This document shows positions 17,974 to 32,000 of a stretch of 32,000 nt of DNA, in pieces. Origin of the DNA: Nostoc punctiforme PCC 73102. GTDB lineage: Bacteria > Cyanobacteriota > Cyanobacteriia > Cyanobacteriales > Nostocaceae. A program made the translations under genes and the position numbers. Location of the stretch: positions 4,620,001 through 4,652,000 of the forward strand of contig NC_010628.1 of assembly GCF_000020025.1 (NCBI RefSeq), given 5' to 3'. Positions within the stretch are counted from its first letter, which is position 1. Every line of letters starts with the position of its first letter. Below the pieces are notes generated by a model, which did no database searches, was not told the DNA's origin, and worked only from the letters and a program-made list of their open reading frames with translations.

Positions 17974-19542
17974 CTAAATTCTCACTTCGGAATCTTCCTT
18001 AAGCATATACCAAATACCATCATTCTTTTGACTTAAAATCTGATATTTTTTCTCAACAAATTCTAGCAGATTTGGAAATTTATCTTTAATTATAGCCTGG
18101 GGTTCGTAATCAATAAAAATATAAGGAGGCTTTGATAACTCTAACTGTTTTATAAGTGCTGACCATTGCTCAGATAGAAAATATTCAAGGGCCCAACCAC
18201 GTAGTATCGTTGCTTGAGTCCGACCAGAAAAATAGTAGATAGATGGATCGCCTGCTACATAAATATCACCAATAAGATTTCCTGGTTGAGATATAAAATT
18301 AGCTTCTGAACGAAGAGATGGATATTTGGGTCTAAAGACAGCCTGATATTGCAATCGTGCATCTTCAGTTAAAGCAAAATTATTATTAACCAGAGTAATA
18401 CTTTTTTTTACGAGAGTGAAAGAGAAAGGTAAGAACAATAAAAATACCAGCAAAATAGTTGGAATTCGAGACTTTAATCCTTTTAAGGAATCCCACAATA
18501 TATCTAATCCCTTAGTTGCTAAAATACCTATAGGTACAAATAATAGTAAGTAATGGTATTCCCACAATGCTGTTTCTTGTAAAAGAATAACAGACAAACC
18601 GAAAATGCACCAAACAACAAGTAGCAAAGTCAATATATTCTTAGACTTATACAATGATACATATACTGCAACAGCAGTCATTAAAATTAAAGAATAAAAA
18701 TTCTGTAATAACCATTTCATTCCCAAAACAAAATTAGTCTGATTAAATGCAGCATTAGCAACAATCATTGGTGGATATATAAAAAATGTCTTAAACACTA
18801 TCGCAAAACTATTAACCGAGATAAAGTAGCTGGCAACAACTAAAAGAGGAAATGTAACTCCTATAAAAATTGGGATAAAAATCTCAATGAAGTTTTTTTG
18901 GATAGTGTGGCGTTTTATCAGTATAGAATACATCAATATACTTAGCCATAATGAAACTAATATCACCAGAAATAAGAATTTAAATAGCAGAACAATTCCG
19001 CCTAAAAAGCCTGACATTAAAAGCAGATAAAATCTTTGCTTTCCTTCTTTTTTAAAAGATTTAAAAGTAACCCAAAGACAAAGGAATAAAGGAAAACCGA
19101 CTAGTGCTTCTACTTGAGTCAGATGCCAAGCACCGGAAACAATATAGTAAACGCCAACTGTTAACAAAGGTACTAGACTTGCAATTATCTGATGTCGAAA
19201 ATAGCTTTTTAGAGTCAGCAGCAATATTATCGAAAAAAATACCATGTAAATAAGTTCAAATACATGGATACCAATCTCATTAAAACCAAATAAAGTTCCT
19301 GCTAAAAAATAAAATGAGAAAATCCCTGGTTGTTTAATATCCCAAAAATCCCGATAAAGTACCTTTCCTTGTTGCATCTCCAAAGCACCTAGCCTAAAAA
19401 ATGCTTGATCTCCGTCAAATGGAAAAGGTAAATGTATCAGACCAATAATGACAATAACAATCAAAACTATAAAGTCAATTTTATTTAATTTAGTAATACT
19501 AATCATGAAATTTAAAGTTAGATTTAAGTGACTATTTCGCAA
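17974..19542 (-). CDS. GT-C-fold membrane glycosyltransferase (ArnT/PMT_2-like)
   Basis: 522 aa with more than 10 TM segments. The first-loop acidic motif (FPFDGDQAFF) and YRDFWDIKQPG resemble the D..KPP loop of ArnT/PMT_2 enzymes. A soluble C-terminal domain of about 130 aa follows. The start is TTG at 19542, with AGGA 10 nt upstream; an alternative ATG lies at 19506. Confidence 0.6.
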   Translation of the reverse strand: MRNSHLNLTLNFMISITKLNKIDFIVLIVIVIIGLIHLPFPFDGDQAFFRLGALEMQQGKVLYRDFWDIKQPGIFSFYFLAGTLFGFNEIGIHVFELIYMVFFSIILLLTLKSYFRHQIIASLVPLLTVGVYYIVSGAWHLTQVEALVGFPLFLCLWVTFKSFKKEGKQRFYLLLMSGFLGGIVLLFKFLFLVILVSLWLSILMYSILIKRHTIQKNFIEIFIPIFIGVTFPLLVVASYFISVNSFAIVFKTFFIYPPMIVANAAFNQTNFVLGMKWLLQNFYSLILMTAVAVYVSLYKSKNILTLLLVVWCIFGLSVILLQETALWEYHYLLLFVPIGILATKGLDILWDSLKGLKSRIPTILLVFLLFLPFSFTLVKKSITLVNNNFALTEDARLQYQAVFRPKYPSLRSEANFISQPGNLIGDIYVAGDPSIYYFSGRTQATILRGWALEYFLSEQWSALIKQLELSKPPYIFIDYEPQAIIKDKFPNLLEFVEKKYQILSQKNDGIWYMLKEDSEVRI

Positions 19543-20243: not shown

Positions 20244-20429
20244 ATGGAACGTTCAAAATTAATTGCTATTCTTACAGGTGCGATTTCGGTTATTTTGGCG
20301 ATCGCTTACCTGATCTTAGTCCAACTTCTGGACTACCGAGACATGAAACCCGCCCCCATCAGCCAATTTGACCAAGCGCCTGCTATTATTTCTGTTTTTT
20401 GGCAGATTGACAAAATTATCGAAGTGTAA
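20244..20429 (+). CDS. possible small membrane protein (61 aa)
   Basis: One clear TM helix (LIAILTGAISVILAIAYLILVQLL). A HIP1 site lies inside the ORF. A strong hairpin follows 25 nt after the stop. There is no clear Shine-Dalgarno sequence. Confidence 0.4.
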   Translation: MERSKLIAILTGAISVILAIAYLILVQLLDYRDMKPAPISQFDQAPAIISVFWQIDKIIEV

Positions 20430-20454: not shown

Positions 20455-20478
20455 AGAGACGCAATTGATTGCGTCTCT
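20455..20478. terminator. hairpin element agagacgcaattgattgcgtctct (11-bp stem), same family as 14007-14071 and 8022-8047
   Basis: The stem pairs perfectly except for the central 2 nt. It sits downstream of the 61-aa ORF. No strong T-run follows, so a terminator function is uncertain. Confidence 0.4.
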
Positions 20479-20631: not shown

Positions 20632-20803
20632 GTAATTCCTTTTTGACTGATATAACGGTAAGCTGTTTCTAACAAGATTAAATAAAGATAAATTTGTCTG
20701 ATCTGCATAGGCGTAGCCTGTCGTAGATATCTCTGGGTTAACAGGGATCAACGTAAGTTGATTCAAAACCCCAAACTTTTGATGGAAATTTAGAGGTAAG
20801 TTG

Positions 20804-22681
20804 ATGGCTCAGTTTCTACTTGAGACTGTTTGGCTAGTTCCTTGCTATGCCTTAATAGGTGGCTTGTTAGCCGTACCTTGGTCGCCGGGAATTATTCGGA
20901 AAACGGGGCCAAGACCGGCGGGTTACATAAACTTGGTGATGACATTTTTGGCGTTTGTGCATAGTGCGATCGCCTTACAAGCAACTTGGAATCATCCAGC
21001 CCAAGAAGTATTTATTCCTTGGTTATCTACAGCTGGTTTAGACCTCACCATTGCTTTAGAAATATCCTCAGTAAGTGTCGGCGCTTTAGTTGTGATTACT
21101 GGTTTAAATTTGCTGGCGCAGATTTATGCCATCGGTTACATGGAGATGGATTGGGGTTGGGGACGCTTCTATTCCTTATTAGGATTATTTGAAGCAGGAC
21201 TATGTGCCCTGGTTCTATGTAATAACTTGTTCTTCAGCTATGTAATTTTGGAAGTCCTCACACTAGGAACTTACCTACTAGTTGGCTTATGGTTTAGCCA
21301 GCCGTTGGTAGTCTCAGGTGCCAGAGATGCTTTCTTAACCAAGCGGGTGGGAGACTTATTCTTGCTGATGGGCGTGTTGGCATTATGGCCCCTAGCTGGA
21401 ACTTGGAGTTATCCAGAACTAGCTGAGTGGGCGGCGACTGCTAACGTCAACCCGACAACAATGGCACTGGTAGGTTTAGCCTTAATTGCTGGGCCGATGG
21501 GTAAATGTGCCCAGTTCCCTTTGCATCTGTGGTTGGATGAAGCAATGGAAGGCCCAGTTCCCAGTACAATTTTGCGGAATTCGGTAGTAGTTGCTAGTGG
21601 TGCATGGGTGCTGATTAAACTGCAACCTGTGTTAAGCCTGTCGCCCATAGTTTCCTCCGCTATGGTGGGCATTGGGGTAGTGACGGCGGTAGGTGCTTCT
21701 TTAATTGCGATCGCTCAAATTGATCTTAAACGCTGCCAATCCTATTCTGTCAGTGCATACATGGGTTTAGTATTCATCGCTGTGGGAACGCAACAAGATG
21801 AAGCAGCGCTGTTATTAGTACTTACCCATGCTATATCCGCAGCCCTATTGGTGATGAGTACCGGCGGAATTATTTGGAATAGCATCACCCAAGATGTCAC
21901 CCAATTAGGTGGGTTGTGGACACGTCGCCCGATTTCAGCAATAGCCTTTATCGTCGGCACTTTGGGGTTAATTGGTTTTCCACCACTGGGTAGTTTTTGG
22001 GCGCTAGTGAAACTATCAGACGGGTTGTGGGAAACGCAACCTTGGTTAGTGGGAGTAGTGATAACGGTAAATGCTTTGACAGCCGTGAGTTTAACCAGAG
22101 AATTCGGTTTAATTTTTGGTGGTAAAGCTACACAAATGAGTCAGCGATCGCCTGAAGCACACTGGCCGATGATTTTGCCAATGGTAATTCTACTTGGCTT
22201 TAGTCTACATCTTCCTTTAGTGTTGCAAAGCTTATCACTTTTACCCGATTGGGCAACTCTAAATAAAGATGTCGTGCTACTTTTAATTTGGTCAAGTATT
22301 TCCGGTTGCAGCATCACTGGGGTGGTTTATTTAGGGAATATTCCTAAACCAATTCGTCTCCCTTGGAAAGGTCTCCAAGACTTGTTTGCATACGACTTTT
22401 ATACCCCCAAACTCTATCGGATAACCATTATTTTTGGCGTTGCCAAGATTTCCCAACTTGCCGATATGATTGACCGCTTTGTTGTCGATGGCATCGTTAA
22501 TTTGGTTGGTTTATTTTCGCTATTAGGTGGCGAAAGTTTAAAATACAGCACCTCTGGACAAACCCAATTTTACGCCTTAACTGTCTTAATAGGAGTGAGC
22601 ATTTTAGGAATGTGGGTAGCTTGGCCATTTTGGGGTGTGCAGTTTTTAAATTTGATTTTTCCAATTTCGACAGTTGGTTAG
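20804..22681 (+). CDS. ndhF3: NDH-1MS subunit NdhF3 (CO2-uptake NAD(P)H-quinone oxidoreductase subunit F3)
   Basis: About 625 aa, with many TM segments of the NuoL/NdhF antiporter-like type (GKCAQFPLHLWLDEAMEGPVPSTILRNS). It lies in a cluster with ndhD3 and cupA. The ATG at 20804 is preferred over the TTG at 20801, and GAGGT lies 9 nt upstream of the ATG. Confidence 0.85.
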   Translation: MAQFLLETVWLVPCYALIGGLLAVPWSPGIIRKTGPRPAGYINLVMTFLAFVHSAIALQATWNHPAQEVFIPWLSTAGLDLTIALEISSVSVGALVVITGLNLLAQIYAIGYMEMDWGWGRFYSLLGLFEAGLCALVLCNNLFFSYVILEVLTLGTYLLVGLWFSQPLVVSGARDAFLTKRVGDLFLLMGVLALWPLAGTWSYPELAEWAATANVNPTTMALVGLALIAGPMGKCAQFPLHLWLDEAMEGPVPSTILRNSVVVASGAWVLIKLQPVLSLSPIVSSAMVGIGVVTAVGASLIAIAQIDLKRCQSYSVSAYMGLVFIAVGTQQDEAALLLVLTHAISAALLVMSTGGIIWNSITQDVTQLGGLWTRRPISAIAFIVGTLGLIGFPPLGSFWALVKLSDGLWETQPWLVGVVITVNALTAVSLTREFGLIFGGKATQMSQRSPEAHWPMILPMVILLGFSLHLPLVLQSLSLLPDWATLNKDVVLLLIWSSISGCSITGVVYLGNIPKPIRLPWKGLQDLFAYDFYTPKLYRITIIFGVAKISQLADMIDRFVVDGIVNLVGLFSLLGGESLKYSTSGQTQFYALTVLIGVSILGMWVAWPFWGVQFLNLIFPISTVG

Positions 22682-22735
22682 TTGAATACCGTTTTATTAC
22701 AAACAAGCAGACATTAATATTGTGAGGAGAATTCC

Positions 22736-23458
22736 ATGAGCATACAACATCCAAAAATTAATCTTTCCAGAAGAAGTTTATTCAAGTTTGGTGCAGGTGC
22801 CATCGGTACGGGTGTACTCACAGTTGGACTTGGCTCAAATTTACTTGCAGCCGAAAAAACCCCAGCAGCGCCAGCAGAAAATGATATTACCCCCGATAAG
22901 GCATTGCAAGAGTTATTAGATGGGAATGAAAGATTTGTCAAAGCAAAACGTCGCAATCCCAACCAAAGCCATTCACGTTTAGTTGAAGTTGCCAAAGGTC
23001 AAAAGCCCTTTGCCTCTGTTTTAGGATGTGCAGATTCACGAGTGCCTTCAGAGATTGTTTTTGACCAAGGACTTGGAGATTTATTTGTTTGCCGCGTAGC
23101 TGGTAATATTGCCACACGAGAAGAAATTGGTAGCCTAGAATTTGGCAGCTTAGTATTAGGCACTAAAGTCATCATGGTAGTGGGACATGAAAGATGTGGT
23201 GCGGTAGGTGCTGCTATTAAAGGCGCTCAAGTCCCAGGGCAAATTGGAAGTTTGCTTGAAGCAATTCAACCAAGTGTAGAAAGTACCAAAGGAAAATCAG
23301 GAGATAAGTTAGAAAATGTCTGTAAAGCAAATATTTTAGCGCAAGTTGGAAAATTGAAGTCATCGTCAGTTTTATCTGAATTAATCAAGGCAGAAAAACT
23401 GAAAATAATTGGTGGTTATTACGATTTAGATACTGGCAGAATCAGTTTAGTAAGTTAG
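22736..23458 (+). CDS. beta-class carbonic anhydrase with twin-arginine (Tat) signal peptide (EcaB-like)
   Basis: 240 aa. The N-terminus has NLSRRSLFKFGAGAIGTGVLTV (an S-R-R-x-F/L-x-K Tat motif plus an h-region, likely cleaved near LLA-AE). The beta-CA zinc and catalytic motifs are intact (GCADSRV and VVGHERCGAV). A GAGGAG Shine-Dalgarno sequence lies 5 nt upstream. Confidence 0.8.
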   Translation: MSIQHPKINLSRRSLFKFGAGAIGTGVLTVGLGSNLLAAEKTPAAPAENDITPDKALQELLDGNERFVKAKRRNPNQSHSRLVEVAKGQKPFASVLGCADSRVPSEIVFDQGLGDLFVCRVAGNIATREEIGSLEFGSLVLGTKVIMVVGHERCGAVGAAIKGAQVPGQIGSLLEAIQPSVESTKGKSGDKLENVCKANILAQVGKLKSSSVLSELIKAEKLKIIGGYYDLDTGRISLVS

Positions 23459-23462
23459 CTTT

Positions 23463-23512
23463 TTTGTCCTTTGTCATTAGTCATTGGTCATTACTAACGC
23501 ACAAAGGACAAA
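23463..23512 (+). promoter_or_regulatory. intra-operon hairpin (12-bp perfect stem) whose loop carries three STRR heptamers
   Basis: tttgtcctttgt (23463-23474) pairs with acaaaggacaaa (23501-23512). The loop contains gtcatta gtcattg gtcatta (23473-23493, overlapping the end of the left arm). A second direct copy of acaaaggacaaa lies at 23529-23540, 4 nt before the ndhD3 ATG. Confidence 0.6.
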
Positions 23513-23544
23513 TAATAAAGGAGAAATAACAAAGGACAAATATA

Positions 23545-25041
23545 ATGTTAAGTGTTTTAATTTGGCTCCCTATTTTAGCCGCCGCTATTATAGCAATATT
23601 ACCTGTAAGTTTCCCTAATCATCGCATTCGTCTAACAGCATTAATTTTTTCTGGAACAGTTCTTGCCTGGAACCTATTTATCCTGCTAAAATTTGATATC
23701 AGCAATCCAACGATGCAATTTAAAGAGTATTTGCCCTGGAATGAAACCCTTGGTTTGAGCTATCAAATAGGTGTTGATGGGCTTTCTATCTTAATGTTGG
23801 TGTTAAATAGCCTACTCACCTGGATTTCGATTTATAGCAGCAATAAAGAAACTGAACGCCCCAGGCTATTCTACTCGATGATTTTATTAGTGAGTGGAGG
23901 GGTTGCAGGTGCTTTTTTAGCGGAGAATTTGCTGCTCTTCTTCCTATTCTACGAACTAGAATTAATCCCCTTCTACTTACTAATTTCCATTTGGGGAGGG
24001 GCAAAACGGGGTTATGCTGGGATTAAATTCCTGATTTATACGGCGGTTTCAGGAGCATTAATTCTGGCGACATTCTTGGGTATGGTGTGGCTGAGTGGTT
24101 CTACCAATTTTGCTTTTGATGCAGTCTCTACAGAAAATCTGTCAACAGCAAAACAAATCCTTTTACTAGCAGGAATAGTCTTAGGTTTTGGTATTAAAAT
24201 TCCCTTGGTTCCCTTCCATACTTGGCTACCCGATGCTTATGTTGAAGCTTCAGCACCAATTGCTATTCTTCTTGGTGGTGTGTTAGCAAAACTGGGAACT
24301 TATGGACTGCTACGATTTGGATTGGGTATGTTTCCTCATGCTTGGAGTATTATTGCACCGACTCTGGCAATTTGGGGAGCAATCAGCGCTATCTATGGGG
24401 CGGTAATTGCGATCGCTCAAACAGATATCAAGCGCATGGTAGCATACAGTTCCGTCGGTCACATGGGTTATATCTTGCTAGCTGGTGCGGCTAGTACTCC
24501 CTTAGCACTCGTTGGTGCAGTCGCCCAAATGTTTAGTCACGGTATCATCCTGGCAATTCTCTTCCACTTGGTGGGAGTCGTGGAAGCCAAAGTTGGCACT
24601 CGCGAGTTAGATAAACTCAATGGTTTAATGAGTCCCATACGCGGTTTACCCCTAATTAGCGCCTTACTAGTCTTAAGTGGGATGGCTAGCGCAGGTATTC
24701 CCGGTTTAACAGGATTTATCGCGGAATTTATTGTCTTTCAAGGTAGTTTCTCTGCCTTCCCCATCCCGACTATTTTGTGTATAGTGGCTAGTGGATTAAC
24801 CGCAGTTTATTTTCTCATCCTCCTCAACCGCACCTGTTTTGGCAGACTCGATAACTTTGCCTACTATCCCAAAGTTCTTTGGTCTGAAAAAATCCCAGCT
24901 TTAATTTTGGCAGCTTTCATCATCTTTTTGGGAGTACAACCCACTTGGTTAGTACGTTGGAGTGAATCTACAACTACAACAATGGTCGCTGCAATTCCCC
25001 CTTTAGAAAAAACCGTAATCTCTGAAGTAGCGCTGAAGTAA
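23545..25041 (+). CDS. ndhD3: NDH-1MS subunit NdhD3 (CO2-uptake NAD(P)H-quinone oxidoreductase chain 4 paralogue)
   Basis: 498 aa of the NuoM/NdhD antiporter-like type (FGIKIPLVPFHTWLPDAYVEASAPIAILLGGVLAKLGTYGLLRF). It lies between ndhF3 and cupA. Confidence 0.85.
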   Translation: MLSVLIWLPILAAAIIAILPVSFPNHRIRLTALIFSGTVLAWNLFILLKFDISNPTMQFKEYLPWNETLGLSYQIGVDGLSILMLVLNSLLTWISIYSSNKETERPRLFYSMILLVSGGVAGAFLAENLLLFFLFYELELIPFYLLISIWGGAKRGYAGIKFLIYTAVSGALILATFLGMVWLSGSTNFAFDAVSTENLSTAKQILLLAGIVLGFGIKIPLVPFHTWLPDAYVEASAPIAILLGGVLAKLGTYGLLRFGLGMFPHAWSIIAPTLAIWGAISAIYGAVIAIAQTDIKRMVAYSSVGHMGYILLAGAASTPLALVGAVAQMFSHGIILAILFHLVGVVEAKVGTRELDKLNGLMSPIRGLPLISALLVLSGMASAGIPGLTGFIAEFIVFQGSFSAFPIPTILCIVASGLTAVYFLILLNRTCFGRLDNFAYYPKVLWSEKIPALILAAFIIFLGVQPTWLVRWSESTTTTMVAAIPPLEKTVISEVALK

Positions 25042-25082: not shown

Positions 25083-25673
25083 ATGAATTTCACATTAATT
25101 CCCAGTGGTCTTGTTTTATTTCGTTTTTTAATATCTCCATTCCTCCTATTAGATGCCTTGGATGGCAAAACCAGTATTTGGTTCATCGTCGGTTTTGTCG
25201 CAGCCTTTCTCTCAGATATTTTTGATGGCATTATTGCGCGACGATTAGGTGTCAGCACTGCCCAATTGCGCCAAGCCGATAGTTGGGCTGATGTCTGCCT
25301 TTTTAGCTGTATCTTCGTGAGTGCGTGGATAGTTCATCAAGATATTCTCGTTACTTATAGCGTCCCTTTGCTAATGATTGTTTTTGCTCAATTGCTGTGG
25401 TGGGTGGTGAATTTAGTGAAATATGGTAAACCCGCTAGCTATCACACCTACTCTGCAAAATTTTGGGGAATCACCCTTTTTATTGCCATTATTGCCTTAT
25501 TTGGCTTTGATTACGCCGGAGTTGCCTTATGGCTGACTTGTATTGCTGGTACAATTCACAGCGTCGAAGAAATTGCTATGACGCTAATATTGCCAGTTTG
25601 GACACATGATGTTTTAAGCATTTTTCATGCCTTGAATATTCGTCAAGAATCACTAACACCAATTACTAAATAA
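25083..25673 (+). CDS. CDP-alcohol phosphatidyltransferase-like integral membrane protein
   Basis: 196 aa, about 5-6 TM segments. The motif DIFDGIIARRLGVSTAQLRQADSWAD fits D-x2-D-G-x2-A-R...D-x3-D, except that the conserved Gly position holds Leu. An AGGAGG Shine-Dalgarno sequence lies upstream. The stop TAA (25671-25673) is 1 nt from the cupA ATG. Confidence 0.55.
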   Translation: MNFTLIPSGLVLFRFLISPFLLLDALDGKTSIWFIVGFVAAFLSDIFDGIIARRLGVSTAQLRQADSWADVCLFSCIFVSAWIVHQDILVTYSVPLLMIVFAQLLWWVVNLVKYGKPASYHTYSAKFWGITLFIAIIALFGFDYAGVALWLTCIAGTIHSVEEIAMTLILPVWTHDVLSIFHALNIRQESLTPITK

Positions 25674-25674
25674 T

Positions 25675-26982
25675 ATGACAGCAATTAAAACAGCAATTAA
25701 ATTACCTCCTTCAACGCACGAATTTGCTGATGTAATTCATCGCTTAGAAGCAGGCGGTGCAATGTTACCCGATACTCCAGAAAATTTGATGCAAATCATC
25801 GGTTTATATAAAGCTTATGCTGTACCGATGGATTTTTACTGGCGTGACCTGCTTTATATTGCTGAAAACGAGTTTTTAAACCCGGTTCCTTTCTTTAAAT
25901 ACTTCTTACCCAAAGAATATTTAGAACTGCATAATCACTATGCTGGCGATGATGCCGATTTACGTATTTGGCGCGGCGAAGCTACTGCACATCCAGAACT
26001 TTTGGCATTTATGGAAAAGGGTGAAACTTTCAAAATGCCAAAGTTATTGCATCACTTGTTCCACGATCGCATTAACATGGAGTTTGCTGAAGCTTGTATG
26101 CGGGCGATGTTATGGCATAGAGGGATGGGTGGACAATTTGACCCTTACCTAGATTCAGACGAATACAAAGCCAACGCTGACCGAGCAATTAAAGCTTATT
26201 TCCAACGGAACCCAGTAATGCTGGGGCTTTACAAGCTGTTCCCCGATATGTTTTTGGAACAGTGCCGCCAGATGTCATACTACGCTAATCTGGGCTTATT
26301 CTGGGAAGTCATGGCCCCGGTATTCTTTGAAATGTCAGACCGCTATGACGAAGGTACCATTAGCACCGTCCCAGAGGCAATGAGCTTCTTAGTTAATGGT
26401 ATATTTGCGATCGCAGGTCGTCCCATTTACCATCACGTTTATATTCGTGGCGAATGCTACGAAATTATCCCTAAATCAAAGGGTTTCATGTGGCTATACG
26501 AAGCCGCATTACCTTACGTAGAAGCTGTTTTCTACCGTACCGCACCCTTCCGGGGGACAAAATCTTATAATGCTCAAGCGCGTCAAGTACCGGAAGACCA
26601 AAAAGATTTTCACTATGGTATTCTTTACGCTGATGTATTTCCAGTCGGTACTGCTGGCATTCCTCCGACATTATTAATGCAAGATATGTTGCATTTTTTG
26701 CCACCATATCTTGTTAATTACTACAGCCAACATTGCCGGGGTGAAGAAGATATGTTGATTCAGTTGGGAGTAAGTTTTCAACGGTCAATGTACTGTGTCA
26801 CTTCTGCGGTAATTCAAGCTTTGCGAACTGCACTTTTATATCCATTAGATGACCAAAATCCCAAGCATTTACAAGCAAATCGAGATTTTTTTGAAATGCA
26901 GCTAAATCGCTTTACTCGACCAGACTATAATATTCGTGATGCTGCTCGTTTAGGGAGTATTCAAAAGCAAGATTATAGATAA
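25675..26982 (+). CDS. cupA: CO2 hydration protein CupA/ChpY
   Basis: 435 aa with ChpXY-family sequence blocks (GAMLPDTPENLMQIIGLYKAYAVPMDFYWRDLLYIAE, HHLFHDRINMEFAEACMRAMLWHRG, GIPPTLLMQDMLHFLPPYL). It lies adjacent to ndhF3 and ndhD3. Confidence 0.9.
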   Translation: MTAIKTAIKLPPSTHEFADVIHRLEAGGAMLPDTPENLMQIIGLYKAYAVPMDFYWRDLLYIAENEFLNPVPFFKYFLPKEYLELHNHYAGDDADLRIWRGEATAHPELLAFMEKGETFKMPKLLHHLFHDRINMEFAEACMRAMLWHRGMGGQFDPYLDSDEYKANADRAIKAYFQRNPVMLGLYKLFPDMFLEQCRQMSYYANLGLFWEVMAPVFFEMSDRYDEGTISTVPEAMSFLVNGIFAIAGRPIYHHVYIRGECYEIIPKSKGFMWLYEAALPYVEAVFYRTAPFRGTKSYNAQARQVPEDQKDFHYGILYADVFPVGTAGIPPTLLMQDMLHFLPPYLVNYYSQHCRGEEDMLIQLGVSFQRSMYCVTSAVIQALRTALLYPLDDQNPKHLQANRDFFEMQLNRFTRPDYNIRDAARLGSIQKQDYR

Positions 26983-26994
26983 GAGATCCCCCAA

Positions 26995-27022
26995 CCCCCC
27001 TTAAGAAGGGGGGCTTTTTTTT
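26995..27022 (+). terminator. intrinsic terminator of the cup operon
   Basis: cccccc (26995-27000), loop ttaagaa, gggggg (27008-27013), then c plus T8 (27015-27022). It begins 13 nt after the cupA stop. Confidence 0.8.
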
Positions 27023-27099
27023 GTGAATTACAATAAGTTTAATTTCTTCAGTGGCAATACTATAAATAAAATTAGACACTCAAATTCCCCTCTTTTTAA

Positions 27100-27123
27100 G
27101 GCTACGGTGTATACACCGTAGCC
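27100..27123. repeat. perfect 24-bp palindrome GGCTACGGTGTATACACCGTAGCC, followed by T5; a third half-copy lies at 27170-27185
   Basis: All 12 base pairs were checked by hand. A 16-nt identical half (tgtatacaccgtagcc) recurs at 27170-27185. The flanks gagatccccc (26983-26992) and gggggatctc (27131-27140) are reverse complements of each other. Confidence 0.85.
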
Positions 27124-27192
27124 TTTTTAGGGGGGATCTCAACGCTGTGGGAAAACTCTAAAAAACTTATGTATACACCGTAGCCATAATTC

Positions 27193-30100
27193 TTATAAAC
27201 CAGATAATACTCCTGCAATACTCGTCAATTCCATAATTTTCTCAAACTGGAAATTATGAGCCAAATTCTGAATAAAATTGCTCAACGTAGCATTTTCTGA
27301 AGGAATTTGTTCAATCAATTCTAAAATTAAGTCATCACTACATTGGGCTGCGGCAGTATACACCTGTTTCACCCATTCAGGCGACATTTCAGACAATAGA
27401 GGAACTAAATCTGTAAGCTTCAAGATTGATTCTGTTATTTGTTGGTTTGCATTTTTTATCTGATAGTTATCTTCTTGATAAATATATTTAACTTCTAAAT
27501 ATTCGCTCAATTTTTTTAATAATTCTTCTTCACGGAAAGGCTTGTTAATATAATCATCACAACCAGCTTTGATTGTTGCCTCTCGCTGTTCTTCAAAGGC
27601 GTTAGCGGTTAAGGCGATAATAATCGTCTTGCGATTTGGGATTGAAGTTTCTTCTCTAGCTTTAATAATTTTGGTGGCTTCGTAGCCGTCCATAATTGGC
27701 ATCCGCATATCCATAAAAATTAGGTGTGGTTGCCATTGTTGCCAAAGTGCGATCGCTTCCGTGCCATTTGCCGCTTCCTGGACTGCAAAACCAATAGATG
27801 TCAAGATTTTTACTAACACTAAACGGCTGTCTATAGAGTCATCAACCACCAAGATGCGGTATTCGTTTTGAGCAGGTGCTAAACTCAGAACTTGCCGTCT
27901 AATTTGTTGGATCTGGATTTCGCTGGCTGCGGCTAGATCAATTTGAATATCAAAGGCAAATGTACTTCCCTCACCAATAATGCTAGTCACGCTAATATCT
28001 CCGCCCATTAGTTCCACATATTTGCGGCTAATTGCTAAACCTAGTCCTGTTCCTTGTTGCGATTTTCTACCGGTTTCAGTTTGTCCAAACGCTTCAAACA
28101 GTAAGTTAATTTCCTGTGGCGCAATACCGCGACCAGTGTCTGTAACCTCGAAGAAGAGATGAGGAGGATGAGGTAAAATTTTCTCCCCCATATTCTCCAT
28201 TGCCACCCGTAACATAACTCTTCCAGTATCGGTAAATTTGATTGCATTTCCCAAGAGGTTAAGCAATACTTGACGCAGTTTACTTTCATCAGCTTGGATA
28301 TACTGCGGAAGGTAAGATGTATATTCAAAATTTAATTCTAAGCCTTTGGAAGTGGCGCGGAAACGCAACATCTCTTCGAGGTTTTCTAAGAGGCGAATTA
28401 AGTCAAAACTGTTGAGATTTAATGTTATTCTGCCGGCTTCAATTTTAGACATTTCCAGAATGTCGTTGATTAAGTTGAGGAGATGTTCGCCAGCACGATT
28501 GATGATTGCTAGATTTTGCTGATGTTCAGTAGATAAAGCCCGATCGTGGCTCATGATTTGGGTAAAACCGAGGATGGCGTTGAGTGGGGTACGCAGTTCG
28601 TGGCTCATGTTGGCGAGGAATTCGCTTTTGGCGCGGTTGGCAGCATCAGCTGTAATCACAGCTTCTTGCAATGCTTGTGACTGCCTTTGAGTCTGCGCCA
28701 GTAATTGTGCTTGCTGTAAAGCCACACCCAACTGATTGCCAATTTGAACTACAATGTTGATTTCTCCTGGTTTCCATTGGCGGGAATCAGAATTTTGATA
28801 ACTCGCTAGTAATCCCCAAATCTGACTACCATATAAAATGGGGACAATGATATAAGCTTTTGCCTGAAAGCGTTCTAAAAGGCTGATGTAAGAGGGATGA
28901 AACTCAGCATTGTAAATGTCTGGGACGCAGCGAAAAGTTGCGCCTTGTGCGTAAATGCCATCTTGAATTGCTTGCATATCAGCATCTTCCGCTTGATTAT
29001 CCCCACTATCCAAAATTTTTGCTAGGCAACGTCCTTGTTGTAAGACACCTTCTGTGAGATTAGGATCGTTGTTATGTTCTTCTATCAGAGAAATCCAACC
29101 ATTACCCACAGACTCAGAGACGAATTCGCCATTCCATTGAGGATTGAAACGATAAACAACAACCCGATCGCAATTGAGTACTTGCCGTAATTCTTGGGTT
29201 GTAGCTGCAAATATAGTCTCTAAATCCAATGTTTGGCGCATCCTTTGAATCACTTGGGCGATCGCTCTTTCCCGTTCTGCACTCTCACGCAGCGCTTCTT
29301 CTGCCAATTTTCTCTCGGTAATATCTGTAATCGTACCGATATAACCTTTTATTTCTCCATCATCTCGAAATTCTGGCAAAGCCTGACAAATTACCCAGAC
29401 AACTGTACTATCATCACACAAAAAGCGATGTTCGTACTTATACATAACTTTAGCAACTCTTGCTTGATTCCATGTCAACAATAGCTGCTCGCGATCGTCT
29501 GGATGTACGGCTTTTGTCCAACCGGTTCCCAGAGACTCTTCTAAATTGCATCCACTAATCTCACTCCAGCGTTGATTAAAATATAAGACATTACCATCCA
29601 CATCAGTGTGAAATATACAAGCTGGGGAGGTTTCTGCTAGCAGTTGATATCGCTGCCGACCTGTTTGTAAAGCTAATTCTGCCAGTTTAGCATCGTTGAT
29701 GTCTGTCCAATAACCGACACATTCTATAGGATTTCCAGTTTCGTCACGAATTAACCTCATCTTTTCGTAAAACCAGTGATAAGTTCCGTCAGCGTGTAAC
29801 CACCGATATTCGTAGGAAGTGTACTCTTGCTCAACCAGCTGGGAAAATTTTTCTGAAATCAGTTCAATATCTTCTGGGTGGACGTGATGCAGCCAGAAAT
29901 TAGGATTTTCGACAAATTCCTGCGCTTCGTAACCAACCATTGCCTTAACGTTCTTACTAATAAAGGTAGTGCTAAAATTGCCTAATGTTTTTTTGCTGCT
30001 ATAAATCACCACAGGGCTAGAAGTAAGCAGATATTGAAGGCGCTCGTTAGCTAAACGTAGTTCTTGTTCGACATGTTTGCGTTCGCGTAGCGCGGCTTGC

Positions 30101-32000
30101 CGTTCGCGTAGTGCTGCTTGCAGTTCGCTAATTTCTACTAAAACAGTGCCCACACCAGAGAGGCGATCGTCTTCACCAGGAATCGGAAAATAAGAAACTA
30201 AAAAGTGGCGGATAATATCTGGTTGTTTAATTGATGCGGCGCTTAATTCTTGATTGAGGATGGGTTCACCTGTCAATAGAACCTGTTGATAAAATGGTTC
30301 TACGACACTGGCTATTTTGGGTAAGGCTTCATGAATGGTCTTGCCAATATGAGCTTCCTGGGATATTCCATTAATTTCCGCTAGTACTTGGTTGATTTGC
30401 ACAAACCGCAGTTGGTTATCTACAATATTCATACCGACGGGAGCCCCTGTAAAAAAGGCATTGAGGCGAGCTTCCCTGAGTGCTAATTCTTGTTCTAGGG
30501 TTTTGCGCTCAATCAACCCACCTAACTGAGCAGCAACAGCATTTACTAGCAAGAGCAAACGTCTATCTACCAATACTGAACTACGTTTAAAAAACACTAA
30601 AACAGCTAATACTTTGTTTCCAGCCAGTATGGGAACACCAAAACCAGCTTTTAATCCTACCTTTGCTGCTTGTTGCGATCGCAAAAAAATTGGCTCTGTA
30701 ACTTCTGAAACATCTTCTATCCATTCTGGTTCCTGATTCTGCCAAACTCTTCCTGGTAGTCCCACTCCCAGAGGAAATTTCACAATTTGACTGTGGCGGC
30801 AAAATTCTTCTAAATTGCTTTGTTCACCATACCAGCCCAGGCTGTGTTCTAAAACACTACTATCTTCATTAGGTATCCATGCTTCACCAAAATCCCAGCC
30901 AATGGTATGACAAATTAAGCGTAAGACCAGTGCTAAAGAGCTATTGACATCATTAGCGCGAGTGATGGCTTGGGTTGTCAACAGTAACAAACGGCTTTCA
31001 TTTTCTGCCTGCTTGCGTTCAGTAATATCTTTCGCTGTGCCTAGTACGTAACATTTTCCATCAATCTCGATCATTTCCGCACTCAGCAAGGTTGTCCTGA
31101 TTTCTCCTGAACAAGTGCAGACATCAATCTCATAGTTACGAATAGCTTTAGTTTTTTGCAGCATCTGGGTAAGAAAATTATATTCTTCTGGATTCACCCA
31201 AATATTCAATTCTTGATCGGTGCGATCGATAACCTGAGAACGAGAATAACCAAAAAACCGACAAAAACTGTCGTTAACTTCGACGAAGCGTTTGTTAGGA
31301 ACAGTAATTAAGGCAATGGGATCGGGAGATGACCGAAAAGCTGATGCTAACTTTTCTTCAGAAGCCCTCCGCGCGGCTTCAGCGCGTTGACGTTCTTTTG
31401 CTTCCAGCACCAAAGATACTAAATTGCCCAGAGAGCGAGCAAAATTTTGATCTTCTAGCGTCCAATGATGAGCAACTCCCACTGCCTCCAAACATAAAAC
31501 CCCTACGGTTTTTCCCTCCTGCCTAATGGGTGTATAGAGTATAGAGGTAATATTTAATCTTGAGTAAGATGGGGAAAATTCTCTAATTCTGGGATCGGTA
31601 TGGGCATCATCTGCGGCGATTGGTTGATCTTGTTGCAAAGCTGCAAAATAAGCTGGATAGTCGGCCTCTGATAAAACAAGTCCTTCACTATGTTGATTGC
31701 GACTGCCCTCAAATAGGTCAAAACACTCGATTTTCAAGCCTGTTTCGTCATACAACCAAACACTGGCCCGTTCCATTCCAATATTTTTGACAGCTGTTTC
31801 TGTAATTTTACCCAAAGCTGCTTTCAAGTCACCCTGATAAAGGATCTGATTTTGCGCCAGTTGGGTTAGCACTAAGTTATGATTGCGGAGCTTAATCGCG
31901 CTCTCTTGGAGTAATTTTTCTATACCTCGACGCTGTGTAATATTACTAGCAGTGCCTGTCATACCTATGACTAAACCCTCTTCGTTGCGTAATGCGATCG
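27193..32000 (-). CDS. multi-sensor hybrid histidine kinase (GAF-PAS-GAF-PAS-PAS-PAS-GAF-HisKA-HATPase_c-REC plus a C-terminal helical tail), N-terminus outside the window
   Basis: The 1589-aa ORF starts at Met 31962, but the frame stays open to the window edge. The upstream residues IALRNEEGLVIG-MTGTASNITQRR read like the end of another PAS domain. The H-box is FLANMSHELRTPLNAILGF. ATPase boxes are LLGNAIKFT, DTGRGI and GTGLGLAISRKYVELMGG. The receiver has ILVVDDSIDSR and LIFMDMRMPIMDG. Confidence 0.9.
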   Translation of the reverse strand, partial: IALRNEEGLVIGMTGTASNITQRRGIEKLLQESAIKLRNHNLVLTQLAQNQILYQGDLKAALGKITETAVKNIGMERASVWLYDETGLKIECFDLFEGSRNQHSEGLVLSEADYPAYFAALQQDQPIAADDAHTDPRIREFSPSYSRLNITSILYTPIRQEGKTVGVLCLEAVGVAHHWTLEDQNFARSLGNLVSLVLEAKERQRAEAARRASEEKLASAFRSSPDPIALITVPNKRFVEVNDSFCRFFGYSRSQVIDRTDQELNIWVNPEEYNFLTQMLQKTKAIRNYEIDVCTCSGEIRTTLLSAEMIEIDGKCYVLGTAKDITERKQAENESRLLLLTTQAITRANDVNSSLALVLRLICHTIGWDFGEAWIPNEDSSVLEHSLGWYGEQSNLEEFCRHSQIVKFPLGVGLPGRVWQNQEPEWIEDVSEVTEPIFLRSQQAAKVGLKAGFGVPILAGNKVLAVLVFFKRSSVLVDRRLLLLVNAVAAQLGGLIERKTLEQELALREARLNAFFTGAPVGMNIVDNQLRFVQINQVLAEINGISQEAHIGKTIHEALPKIASVVEPFYQQVLLTGEPILNQELSAASIKQPDIIRHFLVSYFPIPGEDDRLSGVGTVLVEISELQAALRERQAALRERKHVEQELRLANERLQYLLTSSPVVIYSSKKTLGNFSTTFISKNVKAMVGYEAQEFVENPNFWLHHVHPEDIELISEKFSQLVEQEYTSYEYRWLHADGTYHWFYEKMRLIRDETGNPIECVGYWTDINDAKLAELALQTGRQRYQLLAETSPACIFHTDVDGNVLYFNQRWSEISGCNLEESLGTGWTKAVHPDDREQLLLTWNQARVAKVMYKYEHRFLCDDSTVVWVICQALPEFRDDGEIKGYIGTITDITERKLAEEALRESAERERAIAQVIQRMRQTLDLETIFAATTQELRQVLNCDRVVVYRFNPQWNGEFVSESVGNGWISLIEEHNNDPNLTEGVLQQGRCLAKILDSGDNQAEDADMQAIQDGIYAQGATFRCVPDIYNAEFHPSYISLLERFQAKAYIIVPILYGSQIWGLLASYQNSDSRQWKPGEINIVVQIGNQLGVALQQAQLLAQTQRQSQALQEAVITADAANRAKSEFLANMSHELRTPLNAILGFTQIMSHDRALSTEHQQNLAIINRAGEHLLNLINDILEMSKIEAGRITLNLNSFDLIRLLENLEEMLRFRATSKGLELNFEYTSYLPQYIQADESKLRQVLLNLLGNAIKFTDTGRVMLRVAMENMGEKILPHPPHLFFEVTDTGRGIAPQEINLLFEAFGQTETGRKSQQGTGLGLAISRKYVELMGGDISVTSIIGEGSTFAFDIQIDLAAASEIQIQQIRRQVLSLAPAQNEYRILVVDDSIDSRLVLVKILTSIGFAVQEAANGTEAIALWQQWQPHLIFMDMRMPIMDGYEATKIIKAREETSIPNRKTIIIALTANAFEEQREATIKAGCDDYINKPFREEELLKKLSEYLEVKYIYQEDNYQIKNANQQITESILKLTDLVPLLSEMSPEWVKQVYTAAAQCSDDLILELIEQIPSENATLSNFIQNLAHNFQFEKIMELTSIAGVLSGL

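Follow-up and report, generated by a model that had tools for sequence, protein, structure and literature searches.

Why should a carbonic anhydrase (CA) with an apparent export signal be encoded between two subunit genes of NDH-1(3), the CO2-uptake complex (NDH-1MS) whose CO2-hydration subunit, CupA, lies on the cytoplasmic face of the membrane? This question is raised by a stretch of 32,000 nucleotides from the genome of Nostoc punctiforme PCC 73102 (contig NC_010628.1, positions 4,620,001 to 4,652,000, forward strand), in which a reading frame of 240 amino acids (22736-23458, + strand) lies between ndhF3 and ndhD3. The whole stretch is called the window, and its own numbering is used for the coordinates of its features. 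The reading favored here, with a probability of roughly 60%, is that this protein would be a β-class CA exported by the twin-arginine translocation (Tat) pathway, co-expressed with NDH-1(3) and equilibrating CO2 and HCO3- on the P-side of the membrane to feed CO2 uptake. The protein belongs to a known family, the Tat-exported EcaB-type β-CAs, and is best read as the N. punctiforme orthologue of EcaB from Synechocystis. Published reports disagree on the activity of EcaB, on its location and on its partnership with CO2-uptake complexes, and the sidedness of the enzyme bears on the route of CO2 to CupA, either out of the cytoplasm or lumenally through a tunnel in NdhF3.

EcaB of Synechocystis has been described as active, as raised at low inorganic carbon and as binding CupA and CupB, and it has been detected in the thylakoid membrane (mostly), the plasma membrane and the periplasm (PMC10096703; PMC9283085; PMC11360081). 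CupA has been placed on the cytoplasmic face, with a putative CO2 tunnel in NdhF3 running from the lumenal side to CupA (PMC6981117; bioRxiv 10.64898/2026.08.03.742399), and two hypotheses exist for the source of the CO2 used by CupA (PMC10096703). A CA gene inside the ndhF3 operon was undescribed in the literature covered on CO2-concentrating mechanism (CCM) genomics, in recent reviews and in the NDH-1MS papers; the primary EcaB paper lay outside this coverage and may hold a prior mention. Comparative CCM genomics calls ecaB 'scattered', and the recent structural and mechanistic papers on NDH-1MS make no mention of EcaB.

Related loci, designated by L numbers, were collected in two scans. The first covered one genome per species, was searched with an alignment of diverse relatives and gave at least 80 loci; the second covered metagenomes and gave at least 17 further loci whose CA shared at least 53% identity with the window CA. 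The neighbors NdhF3, NdhD3, CupA and the CDP-alcohol phosphatidyltransferase-like protein of the window were placed on the genome loci by tblastn. Both scans are samples, not censuses, and the locus counts refer to the matches listed.

The carbonic anhydrase and its signal region

The CA gene stood at exactly the coordinates first noted from the list of open reading frames (ORFs), and its translation was 100% identical to a protein annotated 'carbonic anhydrase [Nostoc punctiforme]'. Against the Pfam profile Pro_CA (PF00484) the protein scored 134.4 bits (E 5.4e-39; profile positions 2-156 of 156), far over the curated cut-off of 25.7, which places it in the β class. The preliminary description of this locus had proposed that the zinc ligands and the catalytic dyad were all intact, and both codon reading and alignments bore this out. 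The motif C98-A-D100-S-R102 (codons at 23027-23041) holds the zinc ligand C98 and, besides A99 and S101, the Asp-Arg dyad of D100 and R102, and the motif H151-E-R-C154-G (codons H151, E152, R153 and C154 at 23186-23197) holds the zinc ligands H151 and C154. C98, D100, S101, R102, H151 and C154 were invariant in three alignments of 13-32 relatives, A99 was at least 90% conserved, and Q89 was invariant across every aligned relative. As judged from its residues, the protein is a canonical zinc β-CA with an intact active site.

The closest solved structure was that of Rv3588c from Mycobacterium tuberculosis (CanB; PDB 1ym3, 2a5v), matched at E 5.7e-36 over residues 52-237. The AlphaFold model of the CA had a predicted template modelling score (pTM) of 0.72, and its residues 52-240 superposed on 2a5v with TM scores of 0.85-0.89 and a root-mean-square deviation of 1.8-1.9 Å; as modelled, the protein has the β-CA fold. 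The per-residue confidence (pLDDT) was 66-95 in the domain blocks and below 50 in residues 1-47, which therefore have no fixed fold in the model. Rv3588c has the same zinc site, but the chains in its structures (213-215 residues) cover only residues 52-237 in the alignment and hold no counterpart of the signal region, and it has no link to an NDH-1 complex. The NCBIfam model NF011765 (PRK15219), on the other hand, was matched along its full length, including the N-terminal region (residues 9-238 on profile positions 8-243 of 245). The score of 167.2 bits was under the cut-off of 221, and the CA therefore falls outside this family by the NCBI criterion.

A protein could retain the CA fold and act as a CO2/HCO3- sensor or regulator with little catalytic flux, and some of the literature is compatible with such a role, as early work found EcaB inactive and the activity of Cyanothece EcaB is unverified in published work (PMC11360081). 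A possible sign of low expression was found in the GC content at third codon positions (GC3), which was 25.3% for the CA gene in the window, compared with 41.5, 37.7 and 36.9% for ndhF3, ndhD3 and cupA. In 12 of 12 operon loci tested (the window, L005-L009, L011, L013, L015, L085, L094 and L098) the CA gene lay 6-21 points under ndhF3 and ndhD3, and also under cupA. However, zinc ligands, Asp-Arg dyad and Q89 that are invariant in every aligned relative form the pattern of an enzyme, and a specific CA activity of EcaB was reported later (PMC10096703); a mainly sensory protein is considered very unlikely. The low GC3 could also have indicated a recent horizontal acquisition, which was rejected because the low value recurs in 12/12 loci with old synteny. 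The low value may stem from sub-stoichiometric expression or from a tuning of translation for a Tat substrate.

The first 47 codons (22736-22876) form the predicted Tat signal peptide region. An in-frame stop at 22715 bars a longer reading, the Shine-Dalgarno-like GAGGAG (22724-22729, + strand) lies 6 nt ahead of the ATG, and no further in-frame start occurs before codon 57, so that the N-terminal extension must be translated; a misannotated start that fakes a signal was ruled out by the upstream stop and the good Shine-Dalgarno sequence. The n-region contains K7 and is followed by S11-R12-R13-S-L-F-K17 (Arg-Arg codons at 22769-22774), in agreement with the consensus S/T-R-R-x-F-L-K. The h-region (residues 18-39) consists of 22 uncharged Gly/Ala-rich residues, FGAGAIGTGVLTVGLGSNLLAA, with a mean Kyte-Doolittle hydropathy of 1.36, and the c-region is E40-K41-T-P-A-A-P-A47, with K41 as basic residue. 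A weak h-region, a basic c-region and an AxA site make up a Tat architecture, and what had been called a textbook Tat signal does look like a textbook Tat-type export signal in its twin-arginine motif, its h-region and its lack of a lipobox Cys. The proposed LLA/AE cleavage site was not unique. Two candidate sites were found, after A39 (L-A-A39|E) or after A47 (A45-P-A47|E48), and by visual reading of the N-termini A45-P-A47 aligns with A-[VI]-A in most orthologues, a few residues ahead of a conserved (I/L)TPD; cleavage may occur at either site. The literature lists a putative lipoprotein attachment site for EcaB, but residues 1-97 of the window CA, ahead of C98, contain no Cys.

The twin arginines R12 and R13 were invariant in the three alignments, in orthologues and paralogues alike. 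The Arg-Arg pair and the h-region were kept in 12/12 operon-embedded copies from genomes, with varying residues around them, and in 17/17 such copies from metagenomes (15 loci, two with tandem copies; among the matches listed). Within the window, such an N-terminal pattern was found in the CA alone among 60 ORFs of at least 60 amino acids. A chance Arg-Arg motif was ruled out by this singularity and by the retention in orthologues. Two operon-embedded copies departed from the common form. In L012 (2603-3295; a Nostocaceae metagenome-assembled genome, MAG) a lipobox, LATAC|S, closes the signal; it is the only one found in the EcaB-type operon clade, and this orthologue may be a Tat lipoprotein. 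In L010 (2316-3005; a Nostocales MAG) an in-frame stop just past the signal peptide points to either a faulty assembly or a pseudogene.

Conservation of the Tat signal is an argument for a CA that works on the membrane side opposite CupA. In the usual depiction of the EcaB-CupA interaction, the enzyme would be a partner at the cytoplasmic face. For this to hold, an uncleaved signal would anchor the CA, or part of it would stay as precursor, and its domain would bind CupA or CupB and modulate hydration. EcaB is reported to bind both proteins and to be mostly bound to the thylakoid membrane (PMC10096703; PMC9283085), CupA is on the cytoplasmic side (PMC6981117), and a conserved operon linkage fits a physical partner equally well. 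Against it, the full Tat architecture (Arg-Arg pair, h-region, basic c-region and AxA sites) is kept over large distances, the hydropathy of the h-regions (0.85-1.6) is too weak for a stable transmembrane anchor, and the lipobox of the L012 orthologue would be an anchor on the export side. EcaB has also been detected in the periplasm (PMC10096703; PMC11360081). Moreover, the HCO3- pool would be dissipated if an active, reversible CA faced the cytoplasm, a cytoplasmically expressed CA is lethal at low CO2, and no extra subunit was reported in the NDH-1MS structure (PMC6981117). A partner at the cytoplasmic face is kept as a rival because a P-side enzyme cannot contact cytoplasmic CupA, and it is judged decidedly unlikely.

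EcaB, its paralogues and the place between ndhF3 and ndhD3

The sequence of Synechocystis EcaB (EcaB6803; Q55136, slr0051) was taken from the supplement of PMC9865033, as an optical-character-recognition copy with about 2-3 residues missing. Its best matches were the CAs of L095 and L096 (290-292 bits, 62% identity), both encoded directly after ndhF3, and it was 48% identical to the window CA (213-214 bits). The top 27 matches of EcaB6803 in the analyzed set were operon-embedded CAs (204-292 bits), whereas members of the other cyanobacterial Tat-CA clades scored at most 177 bits. Likewise, a hidden Markov model (HMM) of the operon clade gave EcaB6803 a score of 273.6 bits, and those of the two other cyanobacterial Tat-CA clades gave 204.7 and 196.9 bits. 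Since EcaB scores best against operon-embedded CAs, the window CA is best read as the EcaB orthologue and not as an additional CA.

The phylogeny was less decisive at depth. EcaB6803, L095 and L096 were grouped in 87% of the neighbor-joining bootstraps, and in the topology these three fell with the operon clade. The nodes that connect them had less than 40% support, however, and non-cyanobacterial CAs intermixed at low support. The suggested link to EcaB itself, taken over identities, bootstrap and HMM score, came out stronger than had been supposed. The signal peptide of EcaB6803, IDRRQLIQYGGAFLGTSLMATILG, closely resembles that of L096, INRRNLLQYGGSFIGTSLMATVLG, and contains no Cys in the recovered Q55136. 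For EcaB6803, SignalP 6.0 gives Tat/SPI with 0.98 (supplement of PMC9865033). Like the window CA, EcaB6803 is a β-CA of about 230 amino acids from the functional start with a twin-arginine signal without Cys, and both share the signatures DLFVCR(V/I)AGN, GSLEFG(S/T)LVLG.KV, VPGQIGS and (G/A)YY. Unlike the window CA, it is encoded away from the ndhF3-ndhD3-cupA-cupS operon, as had been stated (slr0051 compared with sll1732-1735).

Two further types of cyanobacterial Tat β-CA were about 50-55% identical to the window CA and had the same catalytic residues: that of Anabaena PCC 7120 'EcaB' (RUR88685, MSRINGFxGRR type) and the MKHFMERRDFLK type. Unlike the window CA, they form separate clades, their genes usually lie away from ndh and cup genes (L001, L016-L032), and a Tat lipobox is present in several of them (P0205, RUR88685). 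CAs of these types occur in Nostoc genomes besides the operon copy. The proteins labelled EcaB in Anabaena and other model strains therefore appear, on these comparisons, to be paralogues and not counterparts of Synechocystis EcaB, and results obtained with them should not be transferred to the latter. This split of orthologues from paralogues was undescribed in the literature covered, with the primary EcaB paper again outside it.

In the window, the CA gene belongs to a cluster on the + strand in the order ndhF3 (20801-22681), CA, ndhD3 (23545-25041), a CDP-alcohol-transferase-like gene (25083-25673) and cupA (25675-26982). The gaps between successive genes are 54, 86, 41 and 1 nt, which puts the CA gene 54 nt past ndhF3 and leaves 86 nt between it and ndhD3. 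That the CA gene stands between these two, as given in the preliminary description, was confirmed by family and structure matches of the neighbors. NdhF3, the NuoL-like subunit encoded by the first gene of the cluster, matched TIGR01960 (ndhF3_CO2) with 1030 bits (cut-off 589) and PDB 6tjv chain F with E 3.9e-219; its R38, Y42 and E115 sit at positions matching Arg37, Tyr41 and Glu114, which contact the CupA zinc site (PMC6981117). NdhD3, a NuoM-like proton-pumping subunit, matched NF005611 (917 bits, cut-off 764) and Pfam Proton_antipo_M, and CupA (ChpY) matched ChpXY (554 bits), TIGR01964 (769 bits) and 6tjv chain P (Tlr0906; E 5.5e-220). An intrinsic terminator (26995-27013, + strand) with an 8-bp stem, 6 G-C pairs and a following T8 begins 12 nt past the cupA stop and closes the cluster, and the next gene is convergent. 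The same strand, the short spacers and the lack of an internal terminator place the CA gene in a predicted operon, and so does the conserved gene order in other genomes.

Among the matches listed, ndhF3 was directly upstream of the CA gene in 26 of the 28 loci whose CA shared at least 53% identity with that of the window; ndhD3 followed the CA gene wherever the contig continued (24 loci), and cupA followed ndhD3 likewise. The genome scan gave ndhF3-CA-ndhD3-cupA on one strand in 11/11 listed loci with a CA at least 55% identical, from two Nostoc MAGs, Calothrix, Pelatocladus, Chlorogloeopsis, two Nostocales MAGs, Chlorogloea, an Acaryochloridaceae MAG, Mastigocoleus and Laspinema. In the metagenome scan, ndhF3 was directly upstream in 15/17 of the loci listed, and one exception ends at the contig edge. 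Across syntenic loci NdhF3 identity drops to 56-58% and the flanking genes differ. Because the linkage is kept in 26/28 of these loci, it is independent genomic evidence for a functional tie of the CA to NDH-1(3), as had been anticipated from the operonic linkage in the window. Across several cyanobacterial orders an EcaB-type gene has stayed in the slot between ndhF3 and ndhD3, which supports this tie at the genome level.

The order is not universal: ndhF3 and ndhD3 are adjacent in Leptolyngbya FACHB-261 (L004) and in the metagenome contig L115, and the Synechocystis operon has consecutive locus tags (sll1732-1735), with ecaB elsewhere (slr0051). Paralogous Tat-CAs lie beside ndh/cup clusters in L004, L115 and L033, after cupA in L115 and beside a cupB-ndhD4-ndhF4-like cluster in L033. 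As other Tat-CA clades have thus joined such clusters independently, repeated selection for linkage of CA and CO2-uptake genes is suggested. The Leptolyngbya sp. FACHB-261 locus (L004 1-8732) is a CCM supercluster of chpX-like, sbtA, sbtB, Tat-CA, ndhF3, ndhD3, cupA and Tat-CA genes, and its two CAs belong to the two non-EcaB clades. Tandem CA-CA pairs were seen between ndhF3 and ndhD3 in L090 (1581-3215) and L093 (1010-2644), with intact Arg-Arg signals in both copies.

These arrangements bear on a simpler view, by which the CA would be a general periplasmic housekeeping enzyme, engaged in buffering of pH or inorganic carbon or in feeding bicarbonate transporters, and placed in the ndhF3 cluster by accident. 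Exported Tat β-CAs are indeed widespread in non-photosynthetic bacteria (Bradyrhizobium, Acidobacteria, Pseudovibrio), genes of the two further cyanobacterial clades mostly lie apart from ndh genes, and in Synechocystis ecaB shows no linkage to ndhF3. An accidental place is hard to reconcile with a slot that is retained in 26/28 of the loci listed while NdhF3 diverges and the flanks change, with tandem duplicates that stay in the slot, and with other clades that joined ndh/cup or sbtA clusters on their own. EcaB also increases under low inorganic carbon (PMC10096703). A housekeeping role unconnected to NDH-1(3) is therefore regarded as very improbable.

Proposed role and side of the membrane

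In the reading favored here, the CA would fold and bind zinc in the cytoplasm and would then be carried by the Tat translocase to the P-side, that is, to the thylakoid lumen, the periplasm or both, its signal being removed by cleavage past residue A39 or A47. It would share a transcript with ndhF3, ndhD3 and cupA and so be made whenever NDH-1(3) is. On the P-side it would hold the CO2/HCO3- equilibrium, so that CO2 is steadily available to the membrane and to the hydrophobic gas tunnel of NdhF3; the tunnel would lead to the CupA zinc site, where hydration would be one-way through proton removal. A fast reversible CA placed outside the cytoplasm would avoid short-circuiting the cytoplasmic HCO3- pool. 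Since NDH-1(3) is present in some cyanobacteria that have no such enzyme, the CA would be an accessory rather than part of the core complex.

A more specific version places the CA in the lumen as an NDH-1MS accessory at or near the mouth of the NdhF3 tunnel, where pumped protons would turn lumenal HCO3- into CO2 for CupA. If this were true, the CO2 source of CupA would be settled in favor of the lumenal route, and the order ndhF3-ecaB-ndhD3 would reflect co-assembly. Chlamydomonas CAH3 offers an analogy: it is a thylakoid-lumen CA with a twin-arginine-type signal that converts HCO3- to CO2 for the algal CCM, and it resembles the lumenal placement of the window CA in its side of the membrane. 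Unlike the window CA, CAH3 is an α-class, eukaryotic enzyme that feeds Rubisco in the pyrenoid and not a CO2-hydrating NDH-1, and no cyanobacterial counterpart is known for its lumenal HCO3- supply through bestrophin-like channels. The lumenal version is put forward tentatively and is considered unlikely.

Several points weigh against the general P-side reading. The generic Tat profiles stayed below threshold, Pfam TAT_signal with 16.1 bits on residues 9-28 (cut-off 22.7) and the TIGR02811 HMM with 14 bits. Cyanobacteria are not known to have a lumenal source of HCO3-. Rv3588c, the closest solved homologue, loses activity at lower pH, and if this holds for the window CA, an acid lumen would suit the enzyme poorly. 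Export is hard to square with the reported EcaB-CupA interaction, because a P-side protein cannot touch CupA on the cytoplasmic face. Some reports describe EcaB as inactive or its expression as unchanged at high CO2. Finally, Synechococcus elongatus PCC 7942, in which specialized NDH-1 CO2-uptake complexes have been studied functionally, is described as having EcaA as its single external CA and no EcaB (PMC11360081), so the CA is not obligatory for CO2 uptake. With regard to the profile scores, the conservation of the N-terminal pattern among the aligned relatives is the stronger argument for a predicted Tat signal than the generic HMMs. On balance, export of the CA to the P-side is favored here. 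N. punctiforme is a genetically tractable organism.

The genetic pairing of a CA-type site with a NuoL/NdhF-like subunit in energized CO2 uptake also recalls the DAB system (DabA/DabB). DabA is described as a large cytoplasmic protein with a buried, divergent β-CA site bound to DabB, unlike the small canonical Pro_CA protein with an export signal found here; in NDH-1(3), the vectorial hydration site is CupA. The DabA-type domain, PF10070/DUF2309, was not found in the window CA, where the Pfam scan matched PF00484 only. A DAB-like pair of CA and NuoL was therefore ruled out by the wrong domain, the wrong size (240 amino acids) and the export signal.

Other features of the locus

The gene between ndhD3 and cupA encodes a membrane protein of 196 amino acids of the CDP-alcohol phosphatidyltransferase family (25083-25673, + strand; Pfam CDP-OH_P_transf, 61 bits), for which the NCBIfam scan gave no equivalog above cut-off. 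It stops 1 nt ahead of cupA, and its catalytic motif reads almost complete in the translation, D-x2-D-G-x2-A-R-x8-L-x3-D-x3-D. A gene of this kind occupies the same slot in L006 (12531-13103; Calothrix anomala, 82% identity) and L089 (8345-8896; metagenome, 74%), and was not found there in the other operon loci listed.

A hairpin (23463-23512, + strand) lies in the 86-nt spacer between the CA gene and ndhD3, with an outer stem of 12-13 bp (TTGTCCTTTGT.../...ACAAAGGACAA). The RNA fold of 23450-23550 had -19.2 kcal/mol (z -2.76 against shuffles); no U-tract follows, and the hairpin was not called as a terminator. It encloses the heptamer-like repeats CATTAGT, CATTGGT and CATTACT, and is followed by two direct copies of ACAAAGGACAAAT; these repeats resemble the short repeats typical of Nostoc. 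The hairpin may be an element of mRNA processing or stability. Promoter and terminator scans of the window did not rise above shuffled controls, and only the terminator after cupA was convincing. The Rfam scan of the window gave no match, and a search for the NdhR-type ATAG-N8-CTAT returned 14 matches, with 14.8 expected by chance.

No cupS follows cupA in the window (26983-27192); in Synechocystis it belongs to the operon (ndhF3-ndhD3-cupA-cupS, sll1732-1735). The convergent neighbor past cupA encodes a hybrid histidine kinase of 1589 amino acids with GAF, PAS, HisKA and receiver domains (27193-31962, - strand), and the genes flanking the cluster are unrelated to it (signaling proteins, a methyltransferase and transporters). 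In L013, a LysR regulator gene lies upstream of ndhF3.

Seven loci have, next to the ndhF3-CA-ndhD3-cupA cluster and in either orientation, the gene of a fasciclin (FAS1) protein of 133 amino acids without an obvious signal peptide; it is absent from the window. The gene lies just past cupA in six of them, L004 (8940-9341, - strand), L011 (13925-14338), L012 (7533-7934, - strand), L013 (7809-8210), L015 (13765-14166, - strand) and L089 (from about 10252), and upstream of the cluster in L094 (from about 60).

On the other side of the cluster, a protein of 522 amino acids with many predicted transmembrane stretches (17974-19542, - strand), which gave no Pfam match at E ≤1e-4, is encoded upstream of the 1.26-kb intergenic region that precedes ndhF3. 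This region holds an ORF of 61 amino acids (20244-20429, + strand) that ends about 370 nt ahead of ndhF3 and has a terminator-like hairpin downstream of it (20455-20478). Its product gave no Pfam match and has one hydrophobic helix (MERSKLIAILTGAISVILAIAYLILV...). The ORF is kept in the same position in L005 (90% identity), L007, L006, L009 and L086, and may encode an unrecognized small protein tied to the CO2-uptake operon.

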